From: an uncultured Gammaproteobacteria bacterium
Lineage (GTDB): Bacteria; Pseudomonadota; Gammaproteobacteria; Steroidobacterales; Rariloculaceae
Assembly (NCBI GenBank): GCA_964503125.1
Contig: CAZCZE010000020.1
Coordinates: 159,979 to 223,978, forward strand
DNA: 64,000 bases
Direction: 5' to 3'
Shown here: positions 31,975 through 52,520 of the stretch, in pieces
Layout: each line of letters opens with the position of its first letter
Position numbering within the stretch: the stretch's first letter is position 1
Made by a program: the position numbers and the translations under genes
The notes under the pieces: generated by a model
What the model saw: the letters and a program-made list of their open reading frames with translations, nothing else
What the model was told of the DNA's origin: nothing
The model's database searches: none

Positions 31975-32011
31975 GCGAGTAGGTCGCGGCATCTAAGCGA
32001 TGCGGCCGCGG

Positions 32012-33262: not shown

Positions 33263-33280
33263 GTTTCCCGCTTTGCCGGC

Positions 33281-33394: not shown

Positions 33395-33423
33395 TTTTCG
33401 AGTCGCGCCCGGGTGCGGTGCGA

Positions 33424-35925
<2,502 letters not shown>

Positions 35926-35935
35926 GGAGTTCTCG

Positions 35936-36445
35936 ATGACGACGCTACGACGTGCGCGCCTTGCCGCGCTTGGCGCGACGGCGCTGGTCCTCGCCGCGGC
36001 GAGCGCGCCGCGCCCCGTGCGTGCGCATCACTCGTTCGCCATGTACGACGAGAAGAAGACTTACGTCCTCACGGGCGTAGTGACTCGTATCAGTCCCGAC
36101 GCGAACCACTTGCAGATCTTCTTCTCGCCGCTCAATGAGGCGCGCAATGCCGTGGTTCGCGACGCCGCGGGCCAACCCGTCGTGTGGGCCGTCGAGCTGC
36201 GCGCCGCGAGCCAAGTCGCCCAAGAGAACGTGACCGTGGGGACGTTTCCTCCGGGAACCATCTTCAGCATCGGTCTCCATCCGTTACGCAACGGTTTACC
36301 GGCCGGGGGTCGCGGTAGGTCGGGTTTGTTCAAGTGCCCGGAGAAGACGCCCCCCGCGCCGGGTGAACATTGCGACGGCGTGGCCGGGTCGACATCGCAT
36401 GGTCAGGGGGCGCTGCCCGCGCCGACCAGCGAATGGCGACCTTGA
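35936..36445 (+). CDS. DUF6152-like small secreted protein (copy 1)
   Basis: 169 aa with a signal peptide ending ..PVRA followed by HHSFAMYDE. The family name is from memory and needs an HMM check. Confidence 0.7.
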   Translation: MTTLRRARLAALGATALVLAAASAPRPVRAHHSFAMYDEKKTYVLTGVVTRISPDANHLQIFFSPLNEARNAVVRDAAGQPVVWAVELRAASQVAQENVTVGTFPPGTIFSIGLHPLRNGLPAGGRGRSGLFKCPEKTPPAPGEHCDGVAGSTSHGQGALPAPTSEWRP

Positions 36446-36479
36446 AGCGCGCCACCGAATAGCGGCGCGCTACTCGCCG

Positions 36480-38696
36480 CTACGGCCGGGTGAGCGACAC
36501 GCGCTCGTGGTGCTCGAGATGCATTTGCGTGTCGGCCGTGGCGCCCGGCCAGTTGACCAATACGGTAATCGGTGCGCGATCCGCGTTCGAGGCGGCGCTG
36601 TCCACGAGGAACCGGCTGCCATCCGCGGTCACGGCGTAATGATCGCGAGCGTCCGCCGGCCCGCCGCCGAGCGGCGGGCGAAACAGCGGGCGCGGTGGAC
36701 CGAGCAACAGCGGCGCCGAGCCCGACACTTCGACCGACATGAGCTCGCGGTCCAGGGACATGAAGAAGATCTCGCGTTGGTCCGATCGCCATTGCGGTTG
36801 CCCGCCGCCGGCATGGGAGACGCGGTATTTCTTCTCGAGCTGCGGATAACTGACGACGTAGACCTCGATCGTGCCCGATTCGTCCGAGGCGTAGGCGATC
36901 CAACGGCCGTCCGGCGAGAAGCGTGCTTGCATCTCGTTGAACGCCGTTGCGAGCAGCGGCGCGGCGCGCTCGTCGGCGACCGATACGGCCCACAGATCGA
37001 GCTTCGTCTCGCCGTTCGCCTGTGTGTAGACGATGGTGTCGCCGCGCGGAGACCAGTCGTTGAGCACCTTCACGGCGCCGTCCCGCAATAACGGTCGGGC
37101 GACACCCTCGCTGGCCGTGGGGCGGACGAGCAGGTCGATGCCGTTGCGCGAGGTGAAGGCGACGCGGTCGCCGCCCGGTGCCCAGAGCGGCGCCATGGCA
37201 TCGGTCTCGAGTCTCGTGTACTCCGCTCGCGACAGGTTCGCGAGCCACAGACCCGGGTCGTTGGTGATGGAGCCCGTGGCGAGCACGGACGTCTCATCGG
37301 GCGACAGGCGCGGATTGAACAGGGTCGTCGGCACGGACAGCGAGCCGAGCTCGGCACCCGTCCGGTCGAACCAAGCGAGGTTTTGGCGCCTGGCGCCCTC
37401 GCGGAAAGCGACCAGGTTGCCGGCGGCGGACACGATGTCTCCATCCCCGAGTGACGGTGGCGAAACGTCGCGTGCGAGCAGAATCGAACGGCCCGTCGGC
37501 TCGAGGCGCGCCAGGTCGATCTCCTCGGCGACCAGCATGCCGTTTTGCACGTGCATGACATAGCGAGGGGGCGCGAAAACGGCGGGCGACTCCGTCGCGA
37601 ACAGCAGCTCCGCGCGCGCATCGTCGAGGCTCGCGACATAGACGCCCGTTCGCGCTGCGTCGAGGCTCATCGCGTGGTAGAGATAGCGCCGCCCGTCCGG
37701 GAGAAACTGCGGCCACGTGTGGGCGAGCTCCCGCGCATCGCGGTCGAGCCTCCTGAGCTCACGGATGGCGCCGTCCCCCGACGCGTCTACGGCATAGAGA
37801 CCCGTCGGCCAGTCGGCAAAAACGATCGTGTCATCCACCCCCCACGTGCCGCCGGCGGGTGCGATGTCGCCGTCGGCGACGATTCGCGTCGTCTCGCCGC
37901 GGAGCTCCACGATGCCGATGCTTCCGGCCGCGAAGAAACCGATTCGTCGGCCATCGGGTGACCAGAAAGGCTTCGACGCGCCGGCGGTGCCGGGCAAGCG
38001 TTTGGCTTCGGACGACTGCAACCGTCGCAACCATAGCGCGCTCTTGCCGGAGCTCACGTCGCGAGCGACGAACACGAGATGCTGCGCGTCGGGCGAGAGC
38101 ACGCCGCCCGACACGATGGCGGTGCCCGGCGGCGGCGGTAGGAACAAGCGGATTGCCGCTGTCGTATCGTTGCCCGGGCTCGGCGCGCGCGACGCGAGCA
38201 CGGCGAGCCCGCTCAGCGTCACGGCAGCGACCGCCGGCCAGAACAGGCGTCCGCGTCCACGGGCCGCGGCCTGCGCGGCGGTAGGCGCTGCGAAGGCCGC
38301 GGTCGGCGATTCGTGGGTCGGCGGCGCCAGGTCGGCGGCGACGGTCTCGACCGCGCACACGAAGCGATAGCCGCGGCGAGGAACCGTTTCGATGAGGTGG
38401 GGTGCATCGGGGTGATCGGCCAGCGCGCGTCGAAGGACCGAGATCGCATGGATCAAGCTGTCGTCGGTGACGATGACGTTGTTCCAGACGGCGCCGAGGA
38501 GCTCTTCTTTGTCGACGAGCCGGTCGCGATGCTCGATGAGGTAGACGAGCGTGTCGAATGCCCGCGAGGGCAGTGCAATCGTCTCGTGCCGCCCCCGAGA
38601 GACTTTCCGGGCAGCGACGTCGACCCTAAACGGGCCAAAGACATACGGGCCGCGCGCCGTGGCCGGTTTCGGCTCGTGAGTGGGGCCCGCGGACAT
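36480..38696 (-). CDS. Membrane-anchored winged-helix (CadC/ToxR-like) transcriptional regulator with periplasmic TolB-like beta-propeller
   Basis: The start MSAGPTHE is at the complement of 38694..38696, within track ORF 36480..38873. It has an OmpR/PhoB-type wHTH (..VPRRGYRF), one TM helix (LFWPAVAAVTLSGLAVLA) and repeated PD40/TolB-like blades (FSPDGRWIAY, WAPGGDRVAF, LSPDETSV). Confidence 0.85.
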   Translation of the reverse strand: MSAGPTHEPKPATARGPYVFGPFRVDVAARKVSRGRHETIALPSRAFDTLVYLIEHRDRLVDKEELLGAVWNNVIVTDDSLIHAISVLRRALADHPDAPHLIETVPRRGYRFVCAVETVAADLAPPTHESPTAAFAAPTAAQAAARGRGRLFWPAVAAVTLSGLAVLASRAPSPGNDTTAAIRLFLPPPPGTAIVSGGVLSPDAQHLVFVARDVSSGKSALWLRRLQSSEAKRLPGTAGASKPFWSPDGRRIGFFAAGSIGIVELRGETTRIVADGDIAPAGGTWGVDDTIVFADWPTGLYAVDASGDGAIRELRRLDRDARELAHTWPQFLPDGRRYLYHAMSLDAARTGVYVASLDDARAELLFATESPAVFAPPRYVMHVQNGMLVAEEIDLARLEPTGRSILLARDVSPPSLGDGDIVSAAGNLVAFREGARRQNLAWFDRTGAELGSLSVPTTLFNPRLSPDETSVLATGSITNDPGLWLANLSRAEYTRLETDAMAPLWAPGGDRVAFTSRNGIDLLVRPTASEGVARPLLRDGAVKVLNDWSPRGDTIVYTQANGETKLDLWAVSVADERAAPLLATAFNEMQARFSPDGRWIAYASDESGTIEVYVVSYPQLEKKYRVSHAGGGQPQWRSDQREIFFMSLDRELMSVEVSGSAPLLLGPPRPLFRPPLGGGPADARDHYAVTADGSRFLVDSAASNADRAPITVLVNWPGATADTQMHLEHHERVSLTRP

Positions 38697-38786
38697 CGTT
38701 CGTTCTTGGTTTTTCCGGAGTTTTCCGCGAGTTTCGGGACTTGCATTCGAGTCTAGCGTACGAATTCTCGGAGCGGCAAGCGGCGC
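38684..38786. repeat. 103-bp direct repeat, left copy
   Basis: GGCCCGCGGACATcGTTCGTTCTTGGTTTTTCCGGAG...GAGCGGCAAGCGGCGC is identical to 50201..50303 except for one C/T difference (38697 vs 50214). It contains the first 4 codons and the 5' leader of the regulator gene. Confidence 0.95.
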
Positions 38787-38832
38787 GACCGGCGCGCGTG
38801 TCGGGTGCCATTCATCGCAGGGACGCGACACC

Positions 38833-39507
38833 ATGGCGCGCGAGCGGGCGCGGCCGCGTGCTCCACCGTTCATCGATCCGCCGGGTTACGCACGCCACCG
38901 GCCCGAGGCGACGCTGCTCTACCAAGTCGTGGAGCGGCACTACCCCGAGTTTGTCGCCACGCGTGAAGCTGCTGGCCGACCTTTACCGAAGTACGTGCAC
39001 GAGGAGTTCGAGGCGTACTTGAGGTGCGGCCGCCTCGAGCACGGTTTTCTGCGCGTCCGCTGCGAGGACTGTCACGCCGAGAAGCTCGTCGCGTTCAGCT
39101 GTAAGCGCCGCGGCTTTTGTCCCTCCTGCGGCGCCCGGCGGATGACGGACAGCGCTGCGCTCCTGGCCGACGAAGTGTTACCGAAGAAGCCGCTACGCCA
39201 GTGGGTGCTGTCGCTGCCGATGGCGTTGCGCTTCCTATTGGCCACGGACCCCAGGGCGCTGACGCAGGTGCTTGGGATCGTCTATCGAACGATCTCGGCA
39301 CCCATTCTCAAGAGGGCGCGGCTGATGCGCGCGAGCGGTGCGACGGGCGCCGTGACGCTGATCCAGAGATTTGGGTCTGCGCTCAATCTCAATATTCACC
39401 TCCACATGCTGGTGCTCGACGGCGCGTACCTCGTCGACACCGAGCCACCGGTGTTCCGCCGGATCGCGCCGCCTAGCCTGGCGGAACTACAGGCGCTTGC
39501 GCTATGA
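38833..39507 (+). pseudogene. IS91-family (Y2/HUH rolling-circle) transposase, N-terminal fragment
   Basis: MARERARP... has a zinc-binding region, CEDCHAEKLVAFSCKRRGFCPSCGARRM, and an HUH-like NIHLHMLVLDGAY. Similarity ends around ..PPSLAELQALA at about 39500. Confidence 0.8.
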
Positions 39508-41268
39508 CCTGGCGCCGAGGAAATCCCGCAGGAATTCCTCGCGTGTCAAAGGGGGTCGAACGTCGTCTCCCAACAACTCCTGTGAAGAGGCTTCCTTTCT
39601 TAGGATGCGGTCATATTCAAACGGCTCTATGGTCTCGTCGCATAGCAGGATGAGGTACTCGACCGAGCGCTCCTGCCCTCTACGGTGGATGCGGTCTAGA
39701 CTTTGGAGATAGTGCGCAGCTTGGTTAGACATCGACTCGTACACCGCGTAGCGCGCTCGGTGCAATGTTAGGCCAGCGCCGGCAGCCGCAGGGTTGCCGA
39801 CGAAGAGCATGGTGACGTCATCCTCCTGGAACCTTCGAACGGCCTCCCGTCGGTCGTTGACCGCCGAGACTGAGCCGTCAATCCTCACAGGATTGTAGTT
39901 GCTGTAGCGAGAACAGAGCGCATTTACAGACGCCGTAAAGAATGACCATACGATGACCTTCTCGCCCTTTGCTTCGATAAGATCCGTAAGGATGCTGTCA
40001 AGCGCGGCAAGTTTCGCGGGAAGGCCGCAGCCAAAGGCCGAATCTATCCCAATTGGGTTGGAGCAAATTTGGAGGAGAGCCGTGCGCCTCGCCATGAAAG
40101 ACGCCAGATTCCGTTTGAAGCTTATTTCGTCAGTGGCGCGGACATCCTCCAGCAAGCCGGACATCGCACTCTCATACAATCGCCGCTGAGCTGGCGGAAG
40201 CGGGAGTATGATGCGCCGGAACGCGCGAGCGGGTAGATCGGGCAAGACTGCGCCCTTAAGTCGACGGATGTACACGCCGCGCGCCTCAATCGTCGCCGCG
40301 ACTACGTCCCTAGCGGCAACAGGATCGGTAGGCACCTCAACGCCCGAAAACGTCTCACCATCGTCGGCGATGTTGAATTGTTCAACAAGGTCAACCGCGC
40401 TATTTGGGGCGGGCGTCCCGCACAAGACGATACATCGACCAGCTTCGCGACGGAGCCTTCGTAATGCGCGAGCCCGCTGGGCTTCGGCGTTCTTCACAAA
40501 GAAGCTCTCGTCCACAATCAGTATGGCCCGCCCTTTCTCTCCCTGTAGTAGATGGCGTATCCGGATCTCAAGCTGCGTTGCCGTTTCGAAGTTGGTAACA
40601 AATATCTCGGCAGGCTCGTCCAATGTCGCACGCTTCTCTGCCTCATGGCCTACAACGGCAGCGGCCCGGTACTTGCTACCAAAAAACCTTGTGAGGTCAT
40701 GCACCCATTCGAGCACCATGTTCTTCGGCGCGAAGATTACCGCGCGTCCGACCAAGCCCTGTTCGCGAAGCCTGTCAAACGCGAACAGGGCCTCCACCGT
40801 CTTACCAACACCCTGCTCGTCAAATATGCAGAGGCCGCGGACATCTGGATGCGCCGCCAACGCGACGGCCGTAACTTGGTGTGCATCCAGAGCATCGATC
40901 CGCTCGTAGCCCTGCAACCACATTTTCGCGGTCTCTGGGGAGGCAATGGCTGTCCGGCAGGCCGCGAGGGCAGCGCTGTGCCACTGACGCCGATGTCGCG
41001 CTGACGTAGCCGCCGCGAGAACGCCCGCTGAGACTGCAAAGGACCATCCGTCAAGCGCAATACGGCAGGCTTCGAGTTCCAACACGTCAACCAGCGCACC
41101 GCCCGCAACCGGATCAAGTTGCAGTGAGATGCCCGCTGTCCGAAGCGTCCGCTCTAAAGTGCGCAGTCTGGCGCTGGGACCAGGCTTGATGAAACAGCGA
41201 CCATCGCGCGCGAGGTTCGCATGGGCATCAAGCTGCGGCATTGGAATCCTCAGGCTGGCTGTTGTCAC
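39502..41268 (-). CDS. SNF2-family helicase-like ATPase
   Basis: 588 aa with motif I DEQGVGKT, motif II VDESFFVKN, motif III LCGTPAPNS and helicase-C QSLDRIHRRGQ. The alternative start MPQLD is 27 nt downstream. The stop sits right at the left junction of the cassette. Confidence 0.85.
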   Translation of the reverse strand: MTTASLRIPMPQLDAHANLARDGRCFIKPGPSARLRTLERTLRTAGISLQLDPVAGGALVDVLELEACRIALDGWSFAVSAGVLAAATSARHRRQWHSAALAACRTAIASPETAKMWLQGYERIDALDAHQVTAVALAAHPDVRGLCIFDEQGVGKTVEALFAFDRLREQGLVGRAVIFAPKNMVLEWVHDLTRFFGSKYRAAAVVGHEAEKRATLDEPAEIFVTNFETATQLEIRIRHLLQGEKGRAILIVDESFFVKNAEAQRARALRRLRREAGRCIVLCGTPAPNSAVDLVEQFNIADDGETFSGVEVPTDPVAARDVVAATIEARGVYIRRLKGAVLPDLPARAFRRIILPLPPAQRRLYESAMSGLLEDVRATDEISFKRNLASFMARRTALLQICSNPIGIDSAFGCGLPAKLAALDSILTDLIEAKGEKVIVWSFFTASVNALCSRYSNYNPVRIDGSVSAVNDRREAVRRFQEDDVTMLFVGNPAAAGAGLTLHRARYAVYESMSNQAAHYLQSLDRIHRRGQERSVEYLILLCDETIEPFEYDRILRKEASSQELLGDDVRPPLTREEFLRDFLGARS

Positions 41269-42550
41269 CCTCGCTACTGGATTGCAGTCCGTGAAGGATC
41301 TTCACGGTGTCAGTGAGTATCTGGCGCAAATGATCAAGGCTTGTCGGCGTCAGCCGTCGATAGTCCTCCCGTTTGAAGCTGTCCAGCCAGGCCGCGAAGT
41401 GCGTAATCCGTTCGTTCGCTGCGGACTTGTCTTTGATACGCACGGGATCATTCGAGATGACCGTCTCGATAGCCCGCTTGACCCCCTCGTCATCATCGGC
41501 ATTCGCGTGTTTGCGCGCCTCAGGATCTTGCAGAATCTTCGGAACCGACCTGACGTCAACGAACGATTTGAACTTGCCCTCCCAGAGCCAGCGAAATACT
41601 TCATCGCGTGCATCCGGGTTCGTCTCTAGCGTCCCCCAGACACCTGGTTTGCTGAGCTCATCGAAATACTCGAAGTTTTCTTGAATCTGCAGCTCGACGT
41701 CGACCTCCGGTCGGTCGAACTCCTCTTCGTGGTACTCCTTGAACTGGGAAGCCAAACCAAACATTTTGATCCAGCGGTCAGCTTGCCGCCAGCCACTCAG
41801 CCCAAACTCCTCCGCGATCTGCACCTTCGCCGCACGTTTGACCTGCGGATCATGCGGATCTTCCGCGGCGAGACGCTGGTAGATATTGAAGACCTCCTCC
41901 GCTTTCACGTACGAGGGCCACGGGATGTGATCCTTCTCCTTGAAGTTCAGCTCCGTCAAGACGGCCCGTTTGACGGCCGTGTCCGTCTCAGGGTCTCCTG
42001 ACGGAACGTGCACGTAGGCTGGCAGCCAGCGCGCTTGATTCCGCGCGCCGCTAAACGCCGGATCAGTCATGATGTGTTGAGCGCCATACCGGCGGCGATT
42101 GCCATCCCACAGCGTGCCGTGATTACCATTCACGTGGATGAAGATTGGTTCCTGCACACCATTCGCGGCGATGTTGTGTGCCATGCGTTCCAGGTGGAAC
42201 GGCTTTCTTGATCGAGCCGACTCGCCGCGATCGGCCTCCAACATGACTTCGTAAATTTCTTGCGTCGTGGGCTCCTTATTCATATCGCCCTGCCGTGCGC
42301 GCCATCGACGCAAGTAGTGTTTCAGCCGGATGTTCTCGGCCCAGCCGTCCACGTCATCGATATGAACACGCCCGTACCACACTGATACCTCGCGGCCGTG
42401 GTACCTGCGGGTCATTCGCCGAGGCTGGTGCTCGGCGTCGGCGCTCGCGACTTCGCGCACGTACCGATCGAGGATCGTCGGCCACTCGGGGCGACGACCT
42501 GCTTGGCCCGTACCGGGCGGGGTAGCAGTGTTGGCCATTTGAGTCTCCAT
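41228..42550 (-). CDS. ParB/Srx-fold N-terminal domain protein (arginine patch GNRR) with HTH-like segment
   Basis: 440 aa with QEPIFIHVNGNHGTLWDGNRRRYGAQ, which resembles the ParB box II GERRxRA NTP-binding patch. It is followed by IAEEFGLSGWRQADRWIKM (HTH-like). No recognisable nuclease domain follows. Confidence 0.65.
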   Translation of the reverse strand: METQMANTATPPGTGQAGRRPEWPTILDRYVREVASADAEHQPRRMTRRYHGREVSVWYGRVHIDDVDGWAENIRLKHYLRRWRARQGDMNKEPTTQEIYEVMLEADRGESARSRKPFHLERMAHNIAANGVQEPIFIHVNGNHGTLWDGNRRRYGAQHIMTDPAFSGARNQARWLPAYVHVPSGDPETDTAVKRAVLTELNFKEKDHIPWPSYVKAEEVFNIYQRLAAEDPHDPQVKRAAKVQIAEEFGLSGWRQADRWIKMFGLASQFKEYHEEEFDRPEVDVELQIQENFEYFDELSKPGVWGTLETNPDARDEVFRWLWEGKFKSFVDVRSVPKILQDPEARKHANADDDEGVKRAIETVISNDPVRIKDKSAANERITHFAAWLDSFKREDYRRLTPTSLDHLRQILTDTVKILHGLQSSSEGDNSQPEDSNAAA

Positions 42551-42594
42551 TGCGGTTAGTGTGTGTGCATGTGAAAGACGCGCGCTGTGACAAG

Positions 42595-43395
42595 TCAGCT
42601 CTCGTCTTCATCGAGTTGATCGACCATAAAGCTCCCGCGGGTCTCCTCGAACGCCGCCACGAAACGAGCAGGCGGTCTCAACCCTAACTCCGTCACTACT
42701 TTCGGAATCTCGACGTGCAGCGCCGCGTAGGCTCGCTGCTTAGCCTTCCTGAAAGCGGCGGGCTTCATCCCCAAAGAGGCCGCCGCCATCTGTGACTGCA
42801 CGTCGAAGTCCTTGCGAGCGAAGTCGAACTGGAACGTCGAGAGATGTCGGATCAGTGCACGCTGCTTGAGCGTCAATTTCTCAAGAGCCGCCTCGACGAC
42901 AACCACTGCCCATGACCCGTCCGCCTCCACGTCGCTGAGAGTTTCCTCAACAGCGACCACAGCCCAGGCCGCGGGCACGAGCGTTGACCCATCGACGGAT
43001 GCGTCTGTTGCATCTGCGCTTGCCGGCGCCGGTGCAGACAATGCCTCAACCGAACTGACCAACTCATTGCGCCGTCGGCGGTGCAGCGTAGCGCCGCAGT
43101 TCCAAGCCGATCGCGCTAGATAGGCGTAGGGATCGGAGATTCGTTGGCCGTGTCTGCGCTCGACGAACGCCTCCAGAGCCTCCGCAATACAATCCTCAGC
43201 ATCCGAGATCTGTAGATTGAGACCGGATGACACGAGCCGCAGCAGGCGCGGTACTCCTTCCCCGACCATGACCTGGTAGAAGGCGGCTCGATCAGCTGCT
43301 GCCCAGAGTTGCGCCAGGCGTGTCGCCAATGACAACTGTTCCTCTTCATCTTCGTTTGACACGCCGGCCCGCTTCCCCGCCTCCGTTCTATCCAT
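42595..43395 (-). CDS. ECF-sigma-factor-like protein
   Basis: The start MDRTEAGK is at the complement of 43393..43395, within track ORF 42595..43521. It is region-2-like (ISDAEDCIAEALEAFVERR...DPYAYLARSAWNCGATLHRRRRNE) and region-4-like (LTLKQRALIRHL...QMAAASLGMKPAAFRKAKQRAYAAL), with an Ala/Asp/Val-rich linker between. Confidence 0.55.
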   Translation of the reverse strand: MDRTEAGKRAGVSNEDEEEQLSLATRLAQLWAAADRAAFYQVMVGEGVPRLLRLVSSGLNLQISDAEDCIAEALEAFVERRHGQRISDPYAYLARSAWNCGATLHRRRRNELVSSVEALSAPAPASADATDASVDGSTLVPAAWAVVAVEETLSDVEADGSWAVVVVEAALEKLTLKQRALIRHLSTFQFDFARKDFDVQSQMAAASLGMKPAAFRKAKQRAYAALHVEIPKVVTELGLRPPARFVAAFEETRGSFMVDQLDEDES

Positions 43396-43637
43396 CACAT
43401 AGACGCGAGCCGTGACACTCGGCAGCGATCGCGCGCTCGCACACGCCAGGGGAAGCGTAACAAGCACATAGACTTGCACGGCGCCTGCATAGATGCGTAG
43501 TTGCGCACCTATGTGCGTCAATGCTCACTGACGCACAAATATGCGCTAATACAAGCCAAAGCCCGTCTGTTTGCGTCTTACAGCACGAACCGGCAGAATC
43601 TTGCGCTGCCTTAGCGCAGCGATAACGAAGGGCGTCG

Positions 43638-43835
43638 ATGAGCAAGACTGTGAGGTTAAGTACGACGATCGACAGCCGATTGGCAGTGCGACTCCAGCGC
43701 GAGACCGACGAACGGACGCCTCGGCTTCCTAAGAGATACGTCATCGAGCTCGCTCTCCAGAGACTCTTCGAGGCCGTTGACCGTGGTCAGCTGGAGTTAG
43801 GACTAGGCGACGATGCCCGATCAAAAAGCGAATAA
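43638..43835 (+). CDS. Ribbon-helix-helix (CopG/Arc-like) small DNA-binding protein
   Basis: 65 aa. MSKTVRLSTTIDSRLAVRLQRE is a beta-strand plus helix pattern typical of RHH. It overlaps the C5-methyltransferase start by 23 nt and is divergent from the sigma-like operon. Confidence 0.55.
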   Translation: MSKTVRLSTTIDSRLAVRLQRETDERTPRLPKRYVIELALQRLFEAVDRGQLELGLGDDARSKSE

Positions 43836-45168
43836 GAAAAGGCTTCCCGTCATATCGCTGTTTAGCGGCGCTATGGGACTCGACCTGGGCCTCGAAGCAG
43901 CGGGCCTTCGTATCGCTGTTGCGCTAGAGTGCAACAGGTTTCCGTTGGCGACCATCCGGAAGAACCGTCCGAACCTTCCCTTGATCAACCAGCCGATCGA
44001 GGACGTTACAACGAAGGAAATCCTCGATGCCGCGGGATTAAAACCAGGAGAGGCGTTCGCGGTGGTAGGCGGACCGTCCTGCCAAGTGTTCAGCACAGCG
44101 GGAAATCGCCGATCGCTTGCCGATCCTCGTAGCACGATGTTCAAGCACTTCGTGCGCGTTATTCAGGAAGCAAGGCCGAAGTTTTACGTGATGGAGAATG
44201 TCCGCGGGCTTATTTCGGCTGCGGTGCGTCACCGCCCATTGAATCAGCGCGGACCCGGCTTCCCGCCTCTCGAAGAGGATGAGGAACTAGGGTCAGCCTT
44301 CAAAGTTGTCGCCGCGTCGTTACGAGGGCTCGGCTACTACAGTGTGTTCGACGTGTTGAACGCGGCTGACTACGGCGTTCCGCAGGCACGGCAGCGACTA
44401 CTGATCCTCGGTAGCCGGGATGGGAAGAAGATACGGATGCCGGAGCCGAGTCACGACCAGCACCGCCGCGATAAACGTCTTCGCTGGCGTACGCTCCGTG
44501 ATGCATTCAAAGGATGGGAAGAGGACAGTCGAGAGTTCTACAACTTTTGCCCGTCGAAGGAGCGCTATCTAAAATTGGTGCCCGAAGGTGGCAATTGGCG
44601 AGACCTACCGGAGCGCATGAAAAGTGAGGCGCTCGGGAGTGCGTTCGACTCGTGGGGCGGGAGATCCGGCTTTTTCCGACGGCTCTCCTTAGATGAACCG
44701 AGTCCCGCTCTTACCACGCGACCCGATAGCAAGGCGACGACACTCTGTCATCCGACTGAGCTAAGACCGCTAACGGTCGGTGAGTATGCACGAATCCAGC
44801 AGTTCCCCTCCCACTGGGTGTTCGAGGGAAGCGTCCGAAAAAAGTACGAACAAGTTGGAAACGCTGTGCCCATCGGACTCGGGAAAGCTGTCGGCAAGGC
44901 GCTGCTGGAGGCATCACGTACTCACGCGAATCCGCAGCGTTTGGAGCGAATTGAGTGCCTAAATCTCGACCTGCTATCAAAGCTCAGTCGCCGACCACGG
45001 ACAATCGTTAACCCCCCGCGGATGCGTGTTAGTGCTAAAGATGAAACGATATCGGAGTGGCACGGCGATGGGCCACGAATGCGCCTCGACGCATTTGACT
45101 ACGCGCCTCCTGGAACAGTAAAGGCATTACAGAAGCTCATCGGACGCTCAAACAGCGCTGGTTTGTAA
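43813..45168 (+). CDS. DNA (cytosine-5)-methyltransferase
   Basis: 451 aa with motif I ISLFSGAMGLDLG, motif IV GGPSCQVFS, motif VI ENV, motif VIII QARQRLLILG and motif X GNAVP. Confidence 0.9.
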   Translation: MPDQKANKKRLPVISLFSGAMGLDLGLEAAGLRIAVALECNRFPLATIRKNRPNLPLINQPIEDVTTKEILDAAGLKPGEAFAVVGGPSCQVFSTAGNRRSLADPRSTMFKHFVRVIQEARPKFYVMENVRGLISAAVRHRPLNQRGPGFPPLEEDEELGSAFKVVAASLRGLGYYSVFDVLNAADYGVPQARQRLLILGSRDGKKIRMPEPSHDQHRRDKRLRWRTLRDAFKGWEEDSREFYNFCPSKERYLKLVPEGGNWRDLPERMKSEALGSAFDSWGGRSGFFRRLSLDEPSPALTTRPDSKATTLCHPTELRPLTVGEYARIQQFPSHWVFEGSVRKKYEQVGNAVPIGLGKAVGKALLEASRTHANPQRLERIECLNLDLLSKLSRRPRTIVNPPRMRVSAKDETISEWHGDGPRMRLDAFDYAPPGTVKALQKLIGRSNSAGL

Positions 45169-45343
45169 TAAGCCGAGACGCGTCAAGCGGCATCGCGGAC
45201 GCAAGCGTGGTGAACTCTTCTTGTCTGAGGCGATCTAGGCAGGCGAAAGACAACTTTGCACGGTCAGAACGTGCAACCCTATTCACTGGAACCTGCGTGC
45301 TGGAGGCCACATCATCGAGCAGAATTCCGGGTGGCTTGAGTCG

Positions 45344-45697
45344 TTGATTAGTGCACGCGACCGAGTGAACCACTACAAGGATGGGGGCATCGAGCCAGAC
45401 GTGTTTACGGTGTGCGCGATCAACGACAAAGACGATGTAACCGTGCAGATTCCGATGTGGTCTGATGAACAATCGGTGGCACAGATGACGTTCGCCGCTT
45501 TCGGTGCGCTATTTCATTTCGTCGAGCAGTTCTTTTTCGCTGTTTTGGCGGCTCGTCTCCCCGACGAGCTGGGCGTCCTAAAGGCGTCCAACGTCCCACT
45601 CTATGAGCCACAGTCGCCTATCCATATCATGCGAACCTCAGAGTTCGAAGCGATTCGCGCTAAGGGCGGATGGTCGTCGCGTGGGGATCCGCTCTAA
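45344..45697 (+). CDS. Hypothetical protein (weak call)
   Basis: 117-aa track ORF with a TTG start. It has no recognisable motif and overlaps an equally unconvincing antisense ORF (45137..45472). Confidence 0.2.
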   Translation: MISARDRVNHYKDGGIEPDVFTVCAINDKDDVTVQIPMWSDEQSVAQMTFAAFGALFHFVEQFFFAVLAARLPDELGVLKASNVPLYEPQSPIHIMRTSEFEAIRAKGGWSSRGDPL

Positions 45698-46025
45698 CAG
45701 GGCGTGTGCGCGATTTCTGATCGAAACGCAGAAATACAGTACTAGCCACCGGCCTACTACTGGATGGACGCTTCGCCACGATGCTTGCCAAGATCCTGCG
45801 CATGCCGCCGCCCGTTGTCCTGACCGACGAGGATCTCAAGATCGCCGAGGCAGCATGCCGCCGCCTAGCCGCGCGGTATCGGCGCAAACGCGATTTCGAG
45901 ACGGCCGCGAGTTGGGAAGGGATGGCCGACAGAATCGCGCGCGTGCGGGCGCCGCGGTGACGGAGCAAGAGTTACAGACGCTCGCCGATCTAGGTGAGCG
46001 GCACGCGATCTACGCCCTCTCCAAT

Positions 46026-49000
46026 CTAGGAGTGCCAAGCTAATGAACTGTCGCGACAGCCGCGATAGTTTTCATCGAGTTGCTCGTTTAGCAACACGAT
46101 AGACGCGAGGCGGCGGATCATTGAAGACACGTATCGCGCTTCCGCCTTCGTTAACGGGCGGCCAAGGACACCTCCTTCGCGGTAGGAAAGCCATTTTTTC
46201 ACGACCTGATATCCACCGATGCGAAACTCCCACACTGCCGTTGGAACGTTGCCCCAATAGACGTGGTCGTTGAGGAATACGTCCACAGGTGGTCCAAAAC
46301 GTTCAAGCGCGGAATGCATACCCGGGACGTTCTGCAAAAGCAGCTTGAAGTTCGGCAATTCCTCCCAAGCTCGTTGCGCGAGCCGGCCCTTACCAGGCAT
46401 CACTGTCCCTTCAGTCATACCGCCCCACCCAACGTCCAAGTAGAGATCCTTAGCCGCTAGTTGTCCGCCCCCGACGCGAGAGACGTTTCCAAGCTCCGCG
46501 AGGAGCGGAGCCATCGATTCTAAGCTCGCGTTATCGAACCCTTGATCTGGATCCAATAGCGCGGCAATTCGGGCGCCTAGCTTGGCGGAGCGAAGAAGAC
46601 TGGTTTGGTCGGAGGGCAAGGGCACACGCGGCCAGTCGTTCAAGACGCCGTCCCTATTCTCCGCGAAATATTCGGGCGCGGAGAGAATCGCGGTTGCATG
46701 CATCCAGATAAGGTCAGTCACGCTACTGTCGGAATCCGGATCTCCAATTGTCAGTTCAGCGATGTACTTCCGCGCTCTAACGGACAGATTCGCGCGCGAC
46801 TTGCCTTTCTCCATCTCCAACAGAAGTCCGCCGACGTTTCCGTCGGTGTTCGGTGCAAGGCGGAAGGGAATAGCGACGACGTTTGGTCGAAGAAGGTGAT
46901 AGTCCGGGAGTGCCGCCGTGATCATTGCCGCGATACCCTCGTTCGGCCGCTCCGCGGACATCCGTGTAACTAGAGCCTTAGTGGCCATAGGCAGGTTGTT
47001 GACCAGAGCGGGGCGCGGCTCATTCCACAACGGCCTCGCTGCGCTCCAATAGCACCACCGATGGTCGAGCGGATAGAGCGCGTAGCGGCGAACAGCCGAA
47101 GCGCTATACGGAGCCGTCTTCAACAAAGCTGCGCGGACTTTCTGTGCGTCGAATCGCCCGCCGTCCTTGACCGGACCAATTTGTGCGGCGACGAGGGCTT
47201 GCCAGCTCACAGCCGAATCCAAATACGTGGCCATACGTTTCTCAAGCGTCACACGGTCTATCGACATGAGGGTCCCGCGGCGCATCTCCTGCAGGCCACT
47301 GATTGGCTCGGCCTCGCACAGGTCGATGACGCGCGGCCACGACAGATAGGATGCTGTTACGTTCTGAGGTTTGAACGTGAAACGGTTAATCGCCGTTGGG
47401 CTAGTCATTGCGTACTGCTCATCGAACGCAGGCACTTTGAGACTGTCTAGAACGGCCTCTCTCTTTGATGCGCCCCAGAACTCCCTAAATCGCACAATCG
47501 GTTTCTCGACGCGATCCTGCCGCAATACGAATAGGCCGATCGACGTCCCGAGCTTGATTCCCTCGCGATTGAACTCCGTTGAAAACACGGACGGGTCGGG
47601 CTCCCCAGTCGGCGTCAATTTGCCGGTCTCCCGCGAGTCGCCGTTAAGACTATCGATCCAGATGGCATCGAACTGTTTCAACAGTCGCTCGCGTAGAACA
47701 ACGTAGGAAGGATCTCCGAGATACGAATAGCTGGAGATGTAGCTAAAAATTCCTCTTCCAGTCTGCGCGATCCTTCGTTCCGCGATCCGAAAGAACCTGA
47801 CGTAAAGCTCATCCAAATTGAACTTTTTTATCCCCCATTTGCTATTCAATCCCGCCTTGTACGGTTCGACTAATCCCTGCTCCTCGTCCGGGCTCGTCCC
47901 TGCGTACGCGTTGTACGGCGGGTTACCAAGAATCACGAGCACCGGAACATCACGCTTCACGTGCTCTGCTGCGTCCCTTTCCACTTCGAGTTCCGGAAAC
48001 ATGGCGAGGGTTGCCTTTGGCCCGGTGGGCACGTCCCAGCCTGTCAAGGCGTTCGTGAGATAGATCGAGGGCCGTTCCCCTTCTTCAGGATCCAAAGGCG
48101 CACCGAAGCTTGCGAGCAGGTTTCCCACTTGCCAATGCGCAACAACGAATGATGCAGGTAGGATCTCAAAGCCAAATACACGCTCGCGCGCGGCTTCCTT
48201 GAGATCCTCCCCGATCAAGGCGTCACTGCCTTCGTCAGTCAACGTTGCGGCGATGCGCCGGAGTACTTCCACGACGTACGCGCCGGTGCCGCAGCAAGGG
48301 TCAAGAACATAGACGTTTTTATCCGCGAGGCCGCGTTCGAGGTTGAGTTCTGTTCTTAGGAGGTGATCGACGCGCTGAACCATGTACTTCACTATTTCTG
48401 CCGGTGTATACCAGACGCCAAGTTCTTTTCTCAGCTCCGGATCGAAGTCTTTTAGGAAGGGCTCGTAGAAGTGCTGAACGGCTTGGCCGCTATCGAAACT
48501 AGCGAAGAACTCTTTCCGCTTTACTCGATTCAGGGCTTCGCCGGTCCTGTCTAAGATCGCCGAAATTCCGAGTGTGCTGAGGCGAACGGGATTTGCGACT
48601 TCAGCGAAGATGCTCCGGATCATCGGAACGGTTAGCACATAGCCGGCGGTCTTCCAGTCGAATGCAGATTTGCCTTCCCGCGATACGAGTACCCACGCAG
48701 AAAACACGCCGTAGAAAAGCGTTTGGACGAGCGTCGATTTGAAGAAGTGATCTCCCTTCTTGCCGTGAAACTTGATACCAAGGATCGTCTCCAATCCCTC
48801 GCGCAGCGGTTTTAGCGCTAGATCGTCCTTCTTTTCGACCGTTTTGAGCGCTTCTCTCGCATACGACGCAAGAAACCCAGCGATGTCCCCGGGGCGCGTA
48901 AGTGGTGCCGCGCTCATCAGCACGCGCCGCGCGAACTCGGTGAAGGCGTCAACGTGATCACTCGCTGCCTTCACGGGGTCCGCACACATTAGCCAAAACG

Positions 49001-49457
49001 TGCTCTCGTCGGTCGCGAAGCTATAGAACTCGCGCTCCTGTGGGTTACCCGAAGAGTCTTCGCCGATTAGCCGAAAATCCCGATAGTTGCTAAGCAGAAT
49101 TAGCCGATAGAGACCGAAGTACTTCGTTGCCTGATCGCTGTTGGCCGTTCGCCAAGTGTCGTCTGAAAGGGGCTTTACCTCGATTACGCCGCGCTCCGGA
49201 ATCGCGCCCATTCCCTTCTTCGGAGCGCCTTTTGAAAACTGGCTCTTGGTGTACAAGCCGAAGTCAGGATGCCCTGAGCCTTGATTACGCAGTTGGCCAT
49301 TGCATACGACGGCTGGTTTTAAGGTCTTCCCAATGGCATTCAGAAGGTTTTCGAGGGCGGCGTAGTAGGAGGTCTCATCGGTCGCGCTGCCTGTACTGCG
49401 GATCTCTAGCATCCGCTCGAAGTACTTGCGGATGGCCTCCTCAATGTTGTCGCCCAA
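46026..49457 (-). CDS. Type IIG/IIL-like restriction-modification fusion: N-terminal PD-(D/E)xK nuclease-like domain + gamma-class N6-adenine methyltransferase + C-terminal specificity region (type ISP-like C-terminus)
   Basis: 1143 aa. The N-terminus GHPDFGLY...GVIEVKPL...QATKYF resembles the D..ExK..Q..Y layout of MmeI-type enzymes. It has MTase motif I VLDPCCGTG and motif IV GNPPY. No helicase motifs are seen in this polypeptide. Confidence 0.8.
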   Translation of the reverse strand: MGDNIEEAIRKYFERMLEIRSTGSATDETSYYAALENLLNAIGKTLKPAVVCNGQLRNQGSGHPDFGLYTKSQFSKGAPKKGMGAIPERGVIEVKPLSDDTWRTANSDQATKYFGLYRLILLSNYRDFRLIGEDSSGNPQEREFYSFATDESTFWLMCADPVKAASDHVDAFTEFARRVLMSAAPLTRPGDIAGFLASYAREALKTVEKKDDLALKPLREGLETILGIKFHGKKGDHFFKSTLVQTLFYGVFSAWVLVSREGKSAFDWKTAGYVLTVPMIRSIFAEVANPVRLSTLGISAILDRTGEALNRVKRKEFFASFDSGQAVQHFYEPFLKDFDPELRKELGVWYTPAEIVKYMVQRVDHLLRTELNLERGLADKNVYVLDPCCGTGAYVVEVLRRIAATLTDEGSDALIGEDLKEAARERVFGFEILPASFVVAHWQVGNLLASFGAPLDPEEGERPSIYLTNALTGWDVPTGPKATLAMFPELEVERDAAEHVKRDVPVLVILGNPPYNAYAGTSPDEEQGLVEPYKAGLNSKWGIKKFNLDELYVRFFRIAERRIAQTGRGIFSYISSYSYLGDPSYVVLRERLLKQFDAIWIDSLNGDSRETGKLTPTGEPDPSVFSTEFNREGIKLGTSIGLFVLRQDRVEKPIVRFREFWGASKREAVLDSLKVPAFDEQYAMTSPTAINRFTFKPQNVTASYLSWPRVIDLCEAEPISGLQEMRRGTLMSIDRVTLEKRMATYLDSAVSWQALVAAQIGPVKDGGRFDAQKVRAALLKTAPYSASAVRRYALYPLDHRWCYWSAARPLWNEPRPALVNNLPMATKALVTRMSAERPNEGIAAMITAALPDYHLLRPNVVAIPFRLAPNTDGNVGGLLLEMEKGKSRANLSVRARKYIAELTIGDPDSDSSVTDLIWMHATAILSAPEYFAENRDGVLNDWPRVPLPSDQTSLLRSAKLGARIAALLDPDQGFDNASLESMAPLLAELGNVSRVGGGQLAAKDLYLDVGWGGMTEGTVMPGKGRLAQRAWEELPNFKLLLQNVPGMHSALERFGPPVDVFLNDHVYWGNVPTAVWEFRIGGYQVVKKWLSYREGGVLGRPLTKAEARYVSSMIRRLASIVLLNEQLDENYRGCRDSSLAWHS

Positions 49458-49664
49458 TCGCCGTCTCCGTGTGGACCAGGATGGCCCCAGTGGGTAGGTG
49501 TTGGCAGTTGTCCAAGTTTACAGTACTGCCGTCGATCAAAATGGCCGCGCAGGGAAACTCTAGAAGGCTGGCATCCGTGTCCCACATCAATGAAGTGGGG
49601 GCGCATTGTTTGCGCGGGCTGCGCCCACGCACCGCTCTTATCTCGAGCTCGACCCGGAGGCTGA

Positions 49665-50114
49665 CGGCCCGATGGACGATCTTCTGGGGCACTCGATCAC
49701 GGGACGACGCACATCGTGCTGGAGCCGTTGGACTTCATCGCTCGCCTCGCGGCGCTGGTGCCGCCGCCGCGGGTACACCTGACGAGGTTCCATGGGGTGT
49801 TCGCGGCGCACGCGGTGCTGCGAGCGGCGATCACCCCGGCAGGAAGAGGGTCGGGGGCACAGCAGCGAACCACCGCCCCGGAGCAGCCTAGACTCAAGGA
49901 TCTTCGCATGACCTGGGCGCGCCGCCTAAAACGCGTGTTCGGGATCGAGATTGAGCAGTGCGCGCGCTGCGGCGGGCGCTTGAAGGTGATCGCGAGCATC
50001 GAGGAACCGGAGCTGATCGAGCGCATCCTCACGCACCGGCGGGAGCGGGGCGAGGAGGCGGCACCGACGACCGCGCTCGGGGCGCGAGCGCCGCCGCAGG
50101 GGCTGTTGTTCTGA
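49665..50114 (+). pseudogene. IS91-family transposase, C-terminal fragment
   Basis: ..DHGTTHIVLEPLDFIARLAALVPPPRVHLTRFHGVFAAHAVLRAAI.. and CARCGGRLKVIASIEEPELIERIL are typical IS91-family C-terminal blocks. Weaker similarity (..SVSHINEVGAHCLRGLRPR..RRLTA) continues upstream from about 49530 in another frame, implying a frameshift. Confidence 0.75.
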
Positions 50115-50200
50115 TTCACCTGGTCGTCGACGGGCTCGTGGTTTTCAGCGCGGGCGGCGGGCGGTGCTGCGCGCAGCGTGGCCGGAGGCCGACATCGGCC

Positions 50201-50303
50201 GGCCCGCGGACATTGTTCGTTCTTGGTTTTTCCGGAGTTTTCCGCGAGTTTCGGGACTTGCATTCGAGTCTAGCGTACGAATTCTCGGAGCGGCAAGCGG
50301 CGC
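50201..50303. repeat. 103-bp direct repeat, right copy
   Basis: See the left copy. Here the duplicated MSAG codons run into an unrelated 23-codon remnant ORF. The repeat is followed 45 nt later by the ATG of 50349. Confidence 0.95.
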
Positions 50304-50348
50304 AAACCGCCGCCTGTTTGCCGATGAGTCGCGGTAGTAGGGGGAGCG

Positions 50349-52520
50349 ATGCCAGCCGTCCGAGCTCTGAACGTCCTTGCGTTGTGCGTGCTCGCGGCCG
50401 CCGGCCTGCGCGTTTTGGGTCAGCCTGCGACATCCGAGCCCATCGCCGTCGATTCGGACGACATCGCCGGGGTCGTGACCGGACCGAACGGCCCGGAGGC
50501 CGGGGTCTGGGTCATTGCCGAGACCGAGGATCTGCCGACGAAGTTTCGCAAGATCGTCGTGACGGACGACCGCGGCCGCTACCTGTTGCCCGATCTGCCG
50601 CCCGCCAACTACGTGCTCTGGGTGCGCGGCTACGGCCTCGTCGACTCGCCGCGTGCGCGCTCTGCCCCAGGCCGAATCGTCGCACTGCCGGCCGTGATCG
50701 CGCCCGACGCGCGCGCGGCCGCGCAGGTCTATCCGGCCAATTACTGGTACTCGCTGATCGAGCTGCCGCAACCCGACCAGTTCCCCGGTACCGGCGCCGG
50801 CGGCAACGGCATCGAAGCGGGCATGGCGACCCAGCACCATTGGATCAATCAGATCAAGACGGGCTGCGTCGTTTGCCACCAGCTCGGCAATCTCGCGACG
50901 CGCGATTTTCCGCCGGGCCTCGGGCAGTTCGAGTCCGCGTACGACGCTTGGGATCACCGCACGCAAGTGGGCCAGGACGGCACGGCGATGATCAGCGCCA
51001 TCAATGCGCTCGGCCGCCGTCCCGCTCTGACGATGTGGGCGGATTGGACCGACCGCATCGCGGCCGGCGAGCTGCCGCCGCAGCCGCCGCGCCCGCAGGG
51101 CATCGAGCGCAATCTCGTGCTGACACTCTGGGAGTGGGGCGGCGAGGCGACGTTCGCGCACGACGAGTTGTCGTCCGACAAGCGCAATCCGCGAGCCAAC
51201 GCCAACGGCCCGATCTACGGCGTCGATTGGGGCAACGACGGCTTCCTCACGCTCGACCCGAACACGCACACCGCGACCGAGGTGCGGATCCCGGTCCTCG
51301 ACCCGACGACGCCGCCGGGTAAGCCGCAATCGATGCCGCGGCCATCGCCGTACTGGGGCACCGAGCTCTACTGGTACGACCCGGCCATCACGAATCATGC
51401 GGCGATGGACAGCAAAGGCCGCGTCTGGATGTCGTCGCGGTTCCGCCGGCCCGAGAGCCAGCCCGAGTTCTGTCGCAACCATCCGTCGGCGGCGTTGTCG
51501 CCTCAGGAGTCGAGCTTCCGCCAGGTGCAGTATTTCGACCCGCGGACGAAGGCGTTCCACCAGGTCAACATCTGCTTCGACACGCATCACGTGCAGTTCG
51601 CGTCCGACGATGATGAGACGCTCTACGGTAACGGCGTGTTCAGCGGCGCGATCGGCTGGGTCAACACGCGCGTGCTCGACGAGACCGGCGACGAGGCGGC
51701 AGCGCAAGGATGGTGCCTGCCGTATTACGACGTCGACGGCAACGGCAAGATCGAAGCCGGCGGCGTCGACCGCTATGTGTTCGCGCACCTCGGCCAACCG
51801 ACCGGGCGGCTCGCGGGCATGCGGATCCCCGCGGGCGTGATCTACAGCGTCATTCCGCACCCCACCGACGGCAGTGTCTGGGGGGCCGTGCCCGGACCGA
51901 TGCCGGGCCGCATCATCCGCGTCGACCCGAAGACGTGCGTTTCCGAGGTCTACGAGCCGCCGTTCAACAATCCCGAGGTCAACGTGAACGGTTACACGCC
52001 GCGCGGCATCGACGTCGATTCCTACGGCGTGATCTGGACGGCACTCGCCGGTAGCGGTCATCTCGCGAGCTTCGATCGCCGCAAGTGCAGAGTCTTAAGC
52101 GGCCCCGCGTCGACGACGGGGCAGCACTGCCCCGAAGGCTGGACGCTGTATCGAACGCCGGGGCCGAGCTTCAAAGGTGCAACCGACGCGATCGCCGTCG
52201 ACATGTCCTACTACAACTTCGTCGACCGCTTCAACACGCTCGGGCTCGGCCCCAACGTGCCGATCGCGAACGGGACCAACTCGGACTCGTTGCTGGCGCT
52301 GCAACCCGACGGCCGCTGGGTCGTTCTCCGCGTGCCGTATCCGCTCGGCTTCTTCACGCGCGGCATGGACGGTCGCATCGACGACCCGAATGCGGGCTGG
52401 AAGGGTCGCGCCCTCTACGGCGACTACGGACAGAACGCCGTTTGGCACATCGAGGGCGGCAAGGGCACGCGCAGCTCCGTCGTGAAGTTCCAGCTGCGTC
52501 CGGACCCGCTCGCGAAGTAG
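50349..52520 (+). CDS. Secreted carboxypeptidase-regulatory-like domain protein with one CxxCH motif and C-terminal beta-propeller-like region
   Basis: 723 aa with a signal peptide and GVVTGPNGPEAGVWVIAE...VTDDRGRYLLPDLPPANYVLWV (CarboxypepD_reg-like). It also has QIKTGCVVCHQLGN (CxxCH) and repeated ..G.VW.. blade-like segments. Confidence 0.75.
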   Translation: MPAVRALNVLALCVLAAAGLRVLGQPATSEPIAVDSDDIAGVVTGPNGPEAGVWVIAETEDLPTKFRKIVVTDDRGRYLLPDLPPANYVLWVRGYGLVDSPRARSAPGRIVALPAVIAPDARAAAQVYPANYWYSLIELPQPDQFPGTGAGGNGIEAGMATQHHWINQIKTGCVVCHQLGNLATRDFPPGLGQFESAYDAWDHRTQVGQDGTAMISAINALGRRPALTMWADWTDRIAAGELPPQPPRPQGIERNLVLTLWEWGGEATFAHDELSSDKRNPRANANGPIYGVDWGNDGFLTLDPNTHTATEVRIPVLDPTTPPGKPQSMPRPSPYWGTELYWYDPAITNHAAMDSKGRVWMSSRFRRPESQPEFCRNHPSAALSPQESSFRQVQYFDPRTKAFHQVNICFDTHHVQFASDDDETLYGNGVFSGAIGWVNTRVLDETGDEAAAQGWCLPYYDVDGNGKIEAGGVDRYVFAHLGQPTGRLAGMRIPAGVIYSVIPHPTDGSVWGAVPGPMPGRIIRVDPKTCVSEVYEPPFNNPEVNVNGYTPRGIDVDSYGVIWTALAGSGHLASFDRRKCRVLSGPASTTGQHCPEGWTLYRTPGPSFKGATDAIAVDMSYYNFVDRFNTLGLGPNVPIANGTNSDSLLALQPDGRWVVLRVPYPLGFFTRGMDGRIDDPNAGWKGRALYGDYGQNAVWHIEGGKGTRSSVVKFQLRPDPLAK

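Follow-up and report, generated by a model that had tools for sequence, protein, structure and literature searches.

A foreign block of putative defence genes inside a decayed ISCR-type transposase gene of an uncultured gammaproteobacterium

We analysed a 64,000-nucleotide stretch of contig CAZCZE010000020.1 from an uncultured gammaproteobacterium of the Rariloculaceae (assembly GCA_964503125.1; hereafter the window, in whose positions all block borders are given) and found that the transposase gene of an insertion sequence (IS) is interrupted there by a 10,140-bp block of foreign DNA (39498..49637). The IS is of the ISCR type (IS91 family, rolling-circle) and has itself decayed to a relic. 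The block takes the place of 75 bp of the gene, with no target duplication; on our reading it is no mobile element itself and needed no recombinase of its own. Our explanation, which we hold with modest confidence, is that illegitimate recombination joined part of a foreign defence island to the interior of this one ISCR copy. The original prediction, made from the sequence alone, had reported a recombinase-less block inside a transposase open reading frame (ORF) and had called its entry unexplained. The topology is as it described, a clean insertion into an intact gene is not what we find, and the puzzle of entry largely dissolves, since a relic IS, a 75-bp replacement and the absence of element ends are marks of illegitimate recombination, for which no element-encoded recombinase is needed.

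Both transposase fragments lie on the + strand and belong to ISCR clade Ia of the IS91 family (NCBIfam NF052416), where they cover positions 24-233 and 374-507 of the 509 profile positions. Pfam, NCBIfam, tblastn and blastn agree with the original prediction that they are pieces of one transposase. Overlapping pieces of two IS copies can be rejected, as neither the profile coordinates nor the pairwise ones overlap. In the ORF at 38833-39507, Pfam identifies Zn_Tnp_IS91 (PF14319, 1.9e-20) and positions 1-29 of the 183 positions of Y2_Tnp, and in the ORF at 49716-50114 it identifies Y2_Tnp positions 149-178. The HUH motif HLHMLV lies at 39397-39414, and its counterpart in the relative P0001 is HFHMLV at residue 189; the zinc-binding domain and the HUH motif of IS91/ISCR transposases are thus both present. 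Many full-length relatives, 490-493 amino acids long and up to 91% identical, came up in a database search, and the named ones come from Steroidobacteraceae and from metagenome-assembled genomes of Gammaproteobacteria. Over 93 homologues, the nearest relatives of the two fragments agree (Spearman 0.85).

We mapped the fragments by tblastn of full-length relatives and by blastn of L001, a contig that encodes one of them. The 5′ piece (38813..39497, + strand, also found by Pfam and NCBIfam) corresponds to L001 5981-6665 at 86% DNA identity and holds codons 1-222; by tblastn it is 90% identical to residues 1-215 of P0001, one of the 492-amino-acid relatives. The middle piece (49638..49701, + strand) corresponds to L001 6741-6804 at 92% DNA identity and holds codons ~247-268. 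The 3′ piece (49699..50184, + strand, from blastn and alignments) corresponds over 49699-50182 to L001 7064-7547 at 84% DNA identity; it holds codons ~355-492, with the stop codon at 50112-50114, and about 70 bp of 3′ sequence. The 75 bp that are missing between the first two pieces (codons ~223-246) are lost exactly where the block sits. A second loss of 259 bp (codons ~269-354) is found at 49699-49701, with a 3-nt ACG overlap and a frameshift that leaves the middle and 3′ pieces in different reading frames. About 381 of the 492 codons survive, fewer than in the roughly full-length protein to which the pieces had been expected to add up. The right breakpoint, earlier placed near 49530, is at 49637/49638, and no clear IS homology is found in 49530-49637.

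By sequence the IS fragments belong to the ISCR family, and they fail the tests for a functional element. Only the two ends of the Y2_Tnp catalytic domain remain, and the RYxxRP tyrosine segment (P0001 325-330), which is kept in 105 of 111 full-length relatives, falls within the 259-bp deletion. Functional IS91/ISCR elements carry oriIS at the 3′ end. In L001, L013 and L014, about 225 bp are conserved 3′ of the stop codon and end, about 230 bp past it, in GTTyAAAAynCCTATCCG, which can be aligned to the corresponding region of one clinical ISCR, the copy beside floR on pJZ30-tet(X4). In the window copy, IS homology ends about 70 bp past the stop, and a search of the whole window for the oriIS-like motif gave as its sole match an unrelated site with 3 mismatches. 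On the other side, the short leader between clear IS homology and the flanking DNA (38788..38812, + strand) is partly similar, in alignments with other copies, to the sequence 5′ of their transposase ATG; the length conserved upstream differs between ISCR copies (~40 to ~115 bp), which leaves the 5′ (terIS-side) boundary undefined. The truncated ORF 38833-39507 closes at a stop codon made by the junction with the block. We conclude that the window ISCR copy is a relic and, with these losses, no longer able to transpose.

The borders of the block are defined by blastn and by composition. Its G+C content is 0.579 vs 0.680 in the rest of the window, and all 130 outside windows of 10.1 kb have values of 0.658-0.705. 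Windowed G+C is 0.55-0.61 across ~39.5-49.5 kb and 0.65-0.70 on either side, with the step within 200 bp of each junction. The composition-normalised tetranucleotide distance of the block is 0.234 vs 0.120 ± 0.015 for other windows. The lower G+C that had been noticed by eye is therefore real, and G+C is discontinuous at both edges.

Next, we looked at the ends and the content of the block for signs of mobility. No terminal inverted repeats (TIR) or direct repeats were detected, and the best alignments of the two ends score below the shuffle means. The junctions, whose inspection for short repeats and hairpins had been called for, show no hairpins beyond shuffled controls (z-scores of -0.1 to -0.9) and no templated filler. 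The block thus has neither the TIR nor the target-site duplication (TSD) of a transposon, and neither the recombinase, the att repeats at its ends nor the tRNA target of an integrative island: scans with Pfam, NCBIfam and PADLOC, including six-frame scans of the 45.2-46.0 kb spacer, revealed no integrase, transposase or relaxase, as the original prediction had stated, and no tRNA was found between positions 30 and 60 kb of the window. RNA family searches gave no match at the locus, and a PLSDB megablast of the 11.8-kb region gave no plasmid match. A single long direct repeat exists here, and its copies lie on either side of the IS relic, not of the block.

At the left edge, IS homology stops at 39497, and homology of the SNF2-family helicase gene of the block to that in L012 stops at 39515. 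The SNF2 stop codon (39502-39504) begins 5 nt past the end of IS homology, in keeping with the few nucleotides given earlier. After its conserved FL..LG, the SNF2 protein has a variable C-terminal tail, of 3 amino acids here vs 5-25 in homologues (2-22 amino acids shorter). As the tail is shorter than that of all homologues, we read the left edge as an arbitrary cut, made within the final SNF2 codons or directly behind them. The stop codon of the truncated transposase (TGA, 39505-39507) is adjacent to that of the convergent SNF2 gene on the minus strand, and both sit in 17 nt that can be assigned to neither side.

The whole relic is in turn bracketed by a direct duplication of 103 bp of host DNA, which the original prediction had missed. 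A repeat search gives the left copy, R, at 38685..38787 and the right copy, R′, at 50202..50304, with one mismatch, at 38698; these are the only two copies in the window, where none is expected by chance. R is native intergenic DNA that holds the first four codons and the upstream/promoter region of a minus-strand host regulator gene (36480..38696; OmpR-type winged helix and PD40/TolB-like beta-propeller, from Pfam Trans_reg_C and PD40). R′ runs on into the native upstream region of the host gene p723 (50349..52520, + strand), whose product, by its homologues and Pfam, is a secreted protein that resembles CarboxypepD_reg at its N-terminus. In four related metagenomic contigs (L016 and L097-L099), homologues of the regulator and p723 are direct divergent neighbours with nothing between them, and L016 has one intergenic region only, homologous to R. 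Because these relatives show the empty site, the 11.4 kb at 38788-50201 is an insertion in a normally short intergenic region.

The duplication is not of the TSD kind that transposition makes, and no flanking repeats were found at other ISCR copies. Two other origins of R were rejected: it is not part of the IS, as its similarity to the flanks of other copies does not exceed shuffles, and it is not a dispersed repeat, as it has two copies in the window and single-copy homology in L016. A 24-mer of R had no exact match in the metagenome collection. At the right outer junction, where the truncated IS 3′ region meets R′ (50185..50201, from alignments), there is an imperfect similarity of ~10 nt between IS sequence, as in L013, and the start of R; it is weak and seen with one reference copy only, and may represent microhomology. 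Thanks to the duplication, neither of the flanking host genes has lost any of its upstream region, and this may explain why the arrangement has survived. R′ should also place the regulator promoter region so that it reads leftwards, via the antisense strand of the ISCR 3′ piece, toward the Type IIG restriction-modification gene of the block, and R should place the p723-side promoter reading into the truncated transposase ORF; judged by this layout, host promoters may now drive relic and cargo.

ISCR relics are recurrent in the lineage of the window and the related contigs. Some 5 kb downstream of the p723 homologue, L097 (15004-15162) and, at the corresponding position, L098 carry a 161-bp remnant of an ISCR transposase 3′ end; it is 76% identical to window 49955-50114 and in the opposite orientation. 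Just 5′ of the full-length ISCR of L013 lies a fragment of 114 amino acids (L013 4553-4897) with weak matches to the phage-integrase N-terminal domains Arm-DNA-bind_3 and Phage_int_M, and this ISCR may have inserted into or beside an integrase gene.

The inner junctions are reproduced in an independent assembly. Logan contig L096 (run SRR10083321) is 10,326 bp long and matches window 39418-49743 at 100% identity; it covers the two inner junctions together with the 259-bp deletion and ends within ISCR sequence, as expected for a repeat. The flanks are represented in two further Logan contigs from this run. One of the two, L105, ends at 38727, in R and 29 nt past the mismatch; this end is consistent with a k=31 graph in which the R core is present twice. 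Between L105 and the window (29556-38727), 2 of 9,172 positions differ, and L096 and L104 are identical to the window; the two differences suggest slight variation between strains, or that the deposited contig was assembled from other input.

Taken together, the order of N-terminal part, cargo and C-terminal part, the 75-bp replacement, the lack of ends, the clipped SNF2 tail, the mosaic make-up of the block (below) and the other deletions at the locus argue for illegitimate recombination. We picture that an ISCR-type IS would have entered the short intergenic region between the regulator and p723, and that the 10.1-kb defence-island fragment would have been joined into its transposase gene, either by double-strand-break end joining with ~75 bp of resection or by microhomology-mediated template switching. 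Similar sloppy joining would have left the other scars, namely the 259-bp deletion, the loss of the oriIS-like end and the 103-bp duplication. The duplication could have arisen by template-switch or staggered-break repair, by homology-facilitated illegitimate recombination, or from a circle by homologous recombination, as has been proposed for ISCR1, with oriIS deleted afterwards. Topology, exact breakpoints, missing IS parts, the lack of transposon-type ends, the empty site of the relatives and the second assembly of both inner junctions are direct observations; how the joining took place, in what order the events came and whether the block entered in the present genome or in that of an earlier host are what we infer here. 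A clean insertion into an intact gene can be rejected, given the 75 bp replaced, the separate 259-bp deletion and the lost oriIS-like end.

Several points weigh against this explanation. Donor DNA closer than 77-81% identity was not found, so any microhomology at the inner junctions is unreadable, and we arrived at the joining pathway by exclusion. The outer junctions, from R to the IS and from the IS to R′, have no independent support, as Logan contigs stop inside or short of R. Finally, in ENA contigs L101-L103 from another metagenome, an IS3-family element (HTH_Tnp_1 and rve) splits a second ISCR of this lineage at L001 ~6754, beside the palindrome CTCGAGCTCGAG and 13 bp from the right junction of our block (6741), a possible sign of something beyond random breakage. 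With two cases, a spacing of 13 bp may be a coincidence.

The alternative that survives best, which we nevertheless consider unlikely, is that the island originally lay between two directly oriented ISCR copies, as in a composite or ISCR-captured region, and that two independent deletions then cost the left copy its 3′ part and the right copy its 5′ part. ISCR elements are known to flank and capture foreign genes, as in the ISCR1 and ISCR2 regions. That background aside, ISCR remnants are common in this lineage (the L097 relic and L101-L103), and deletions have clearly happened at the locus. However, in IS coordinates no more than 75 bp separate the breakpoints of the two fragments, which are correctly ordered and do not overlap; this would occur with a chance of ~5-10% if the deletions were independent. 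The two fragments also share the same nearest relatives, and at least three events would be needed where one suffices.

We next consider rolling-circle ISCR biology, by which the foreign genes would have been captured by read-through or by aberrant rolling-circle transposition, or a composite of ISCR and block would have been mobilised in trans as a non-autonomous unit and then have recombined homologously at R, much like ISCR1 between its duplicated 3′-CS segments. The transposase is of the ISCR clade, and its fragments are 61% identical in protein sequence to ISCR transposases of clinical plasmids, such as that of the copy beside floR on plasmid pJZ30-tet(X4) (NZ_ON390809.1). Full-length environmental relatives share the oriIS-like motif (…CCTATCCG…) with this clinical element. 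R lies on the 5′ (terIS) side, as a circle with homologous recombination predicts, and such a route could explain the outer structure. ISCR capture, however, normally puts foreign DNA beside the element: it predicts cargo outside the gene by terIS, with 5′-truncated copies to the left of the cargo, and the observed order of N-terminal part, cargo and C-terminal part is the opposite. Unlike clinical ISCR, the window copy has foreign DNA inside its gene and lacks both the oriIS-like end and RYxxRP. Other ISCR copies lack flanking repeats, and the IS91 target tetranucleotides GTTC and CTTG are not at the junctions. We regard this route as distinctly improbable. A linearised circle of ISCR and cargo inserted by end joining was rejected on order too, as it predicts C-terminal part, cargo and N-terminal part.

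The IS3-family interruption noted above permits two further readings, to which we give a slim chance. The palindromic stretch around codons 247-252 of the transposase gene in this ISCR lineage (…TATCTCGAGCTCGAG…) would be a recurrent hot spot of breakage or capture, with dead ISCRs serving as landing pads for defence DNA, or the ISCR with its defence genes would have been a cargo-carrying composite, mobilised in trans as an IS91-type element before oriIS was lost. For both, the sole support is that the block and the IS3-family element independently interrupt such a gene 13 bp apart.

The same neighbouring interruption would also suit a block that is a non-autonomous mobile element, for example a transposon derivative or a decayed integrative element, mobilised in trans by an enzyme encoded elsewhere and perhaps preferring this ISCR site, and in L003 the five-gene module of the block (below) adjoins TniQ and Mu-like transposase genes. 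Such an element should not lack TIR, TSD and att-like repeats, lose 75 bp of its target or have a gene tail clipped at its left edge; in addition, its two inner modules are unrelated in distribution and one copy of the block is known, and we find this reading quite implausible. Least probable of all is an assembly artefact, in which the block or the 11.4-kb segment came from another molecule, for example a circle sharing R: the contig is metagenome-derived, R has an 89-nt identical core that exceeds small k-mers, both R and ISCR sequence are places where Logan contigs break, and a circle with R′(T) together with an empty chromosome with R(C) would yield the same k=31 graph, but the independent assembler matched the inner junctions and the internal deletion base for base, the segment has no replication gene, and the mismatch between R and R′ and their different tails are in keeping with the presence of two genuine copies.

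Having weighed these alternatives against illegitimate joining of a defence-island fragment, we turn to the cargo. The block holds six credible genes. The SNF2-family helicase gene (39502..41268, minus strand, 588 amino acids; Pfam SNF2-rel_dom and Helicase_C) has partial PADLOC matches to DpdE, ZorD and DrmD. It is followed by the gene of a ParB/KorB/Noc-like protein (41228..42550, minus strand, 436-440 amino acids) and by that of a protein like sigma-70 or extracytoplasmic function (ECF) sigma factors (42595..43521, minus strand). On the + strand, a gene for a small protein of 65 amino acids (43638..43835), recognised by its tblastn conservation, lies 5′ of and overlaps the gene of a C5 cytosine DNA methyltransferase of Dcm type (43813..45168; Pfam DNA_methylase 5e-53, TIGR00675), for which PADLOC gives matches to DruM, DrmMII and MTase_II. 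Beyond a spacer (45169..46025) in which six-frame fragment scans detected no recognisable gene or recombinase remnant lies the Type IIG gene (46026..49457, minus strand, 1143 amino acids).

The first five of these genes form a conserved module, in which the 65-amino-acid protein and the C5 methylase are encoded divergently from the sigma-like, ParB/KorB-like and SNF2 proteins. The same gene order occurs in nine species-representative genomes and two metagenomic contigs. The nine genomes are of Alphaproteobacteria, Nitrospirota, Methylophilaceae, Melainabacteria, Holophagales and Dehalococcoidia. The module is conserved across at least six phyla; in Dehalococcoidia, a HhH-GPD glycosylase-HTH gene stands in for SNF2. 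In L002 its neighbours are genes for an integrase, AbiEii and NACHT, and in L003 those for TniQ and a Mu-like transposase; the module is therefore typical defence-island cargo of recombinase-bearing elements. Its homology to L011 ends at 45115, and the Type IIG gene lies outside it and has no homologue in L002-L012. Because the homology of the five-gene module ends there, the block, rather than the single cassette originally proposed, is on its gene content a mosaic of two separate putative defence modules.

The ParB-like protein belongs to a small family of 156 homologues that has no Pfam or PADLOC model, and a sequence-profile search of it against PDB found nothing. Its AlphaFold2 model has a predicted local distance difference test score (pLDDT) of 87, and the top 26 PDB matches of that model in Foldseek are all ParB, KorB, Noc, PadC or Spo0J, with probabilities of 0.9-1.0 and with TM-scores that are low to moderate (0.32-0.56 on the target). 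The family has an invariant WDGNRR motif, and a paralogue in L004 has a weak Pfam match to ParB_N. In its predicted structure, then, the protein has the ParB N-terminal fold of the CTP-binding type followed by a helical DNA-binding domain, the arrangement of ParB, KorB and Noc.

The sigma-like protein has weak NCBIfam matches to SigE/ECF, and Sigma70_r2 reaches the Pfam cut-off in its L009 homologue; its gene keeps a conserved position beside the ParB-like gene. Homologues have 255-289 amino acids vs 308 for the ORF, and the true start is probably downstream of the ORF start. The 65-amino-acid protein has no family match, and its gene is kept in L002, L011, L012 and L096. The Type IIG enzyme matches PADLOC REase_MTase_IIG (2.7e-79 and 6.7e-61) and Pfam N6_Mtase and Type_ISP_C. 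Its translation contains an N-terminal PD...EVK nuclease-like motif, the NPPY of an N6 methylase and a Type ISP-like specificity domain, and the gene is thus predicted to encode a nuclease, a gamma-class N6 methylase and a specificity domain in one polypeptide, as expected of Type IIG.

We compared the five-gene module with known methylase-associated defence systems. With DISARM, Druantia, Zorya and Dpd, the SNF2 and methylase proteins share only the generic helicase and methylase cores: against the NCBIfam models of DISARM, Zorya, Dpd and Druantia they score 28-36 bits vs cut-offs of 500-1500, and none of the signature partners DrmA/B/C, ZorA/B/C, DpdA-C and DruA-E is in the block. Dnd-related cytosine-methylase systems, which are built around a CxC ABC ATPase and DndE (Rakesh et al. 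2024, PMC10853773), were rejected, as both of these components are absent here. A literature search found no description of the five-gene module. Based on its predicted gene functions, we regard it as a candidate uncharacterised methylation-associated defence or epigenetic system.

The arrangement as a whole can also be set beside known ones. In complex class 1 integrons, ISCR1 reportedly lies between duplicated 3′-CS segments, in a model said to be that of Toleman and colleagues from 2006. Like these integrons, the window has an ISCR and foreign genes bracketed by duplicated adjacent DNA, the 103-bp R; unlike them, it has a duplication of 103 bp of chromosomal intergenic DNA, has its cargo in the transposase ORF and has no integron or intact ISCR. 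As in the defence islands of mobile elements, a methylase-associated helicase module stands with a Type IIG enzyme in DNA of foreign composition, but here the fragment has no carrier with working mobility genes, and the one mobile element beside it is the dead IS that it splits. Illegitimate recombination of foreign DNA, with or without facilitation by homology, was reportedly described by de Vries and Wackernagel in 2002. Judged from the scars only, the window resembles its products in the absence of element ends, the small target deletion, the possible outer microhomology and the short duplication and deletion of recipient DNA.

From these comparisons, we conclude that the interrupted ISCR is a real and well-resolved but ordinary genome scar, and that the possibly new item is the cargo module. 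The module is the more promising lead, being found across at least six phyla with ParB-like and sigma-like partners that have no PADLOC model. The locus itself provides a documented example of how defence genes may become fixed in a chromosome through illegitimate joining into a dying IS, and it shows that elements of the ISCR clade, whose best-known members sit on resistance plasmids from clinics, are also numerous in environmental bacteria of high G+C, where they are decaying.

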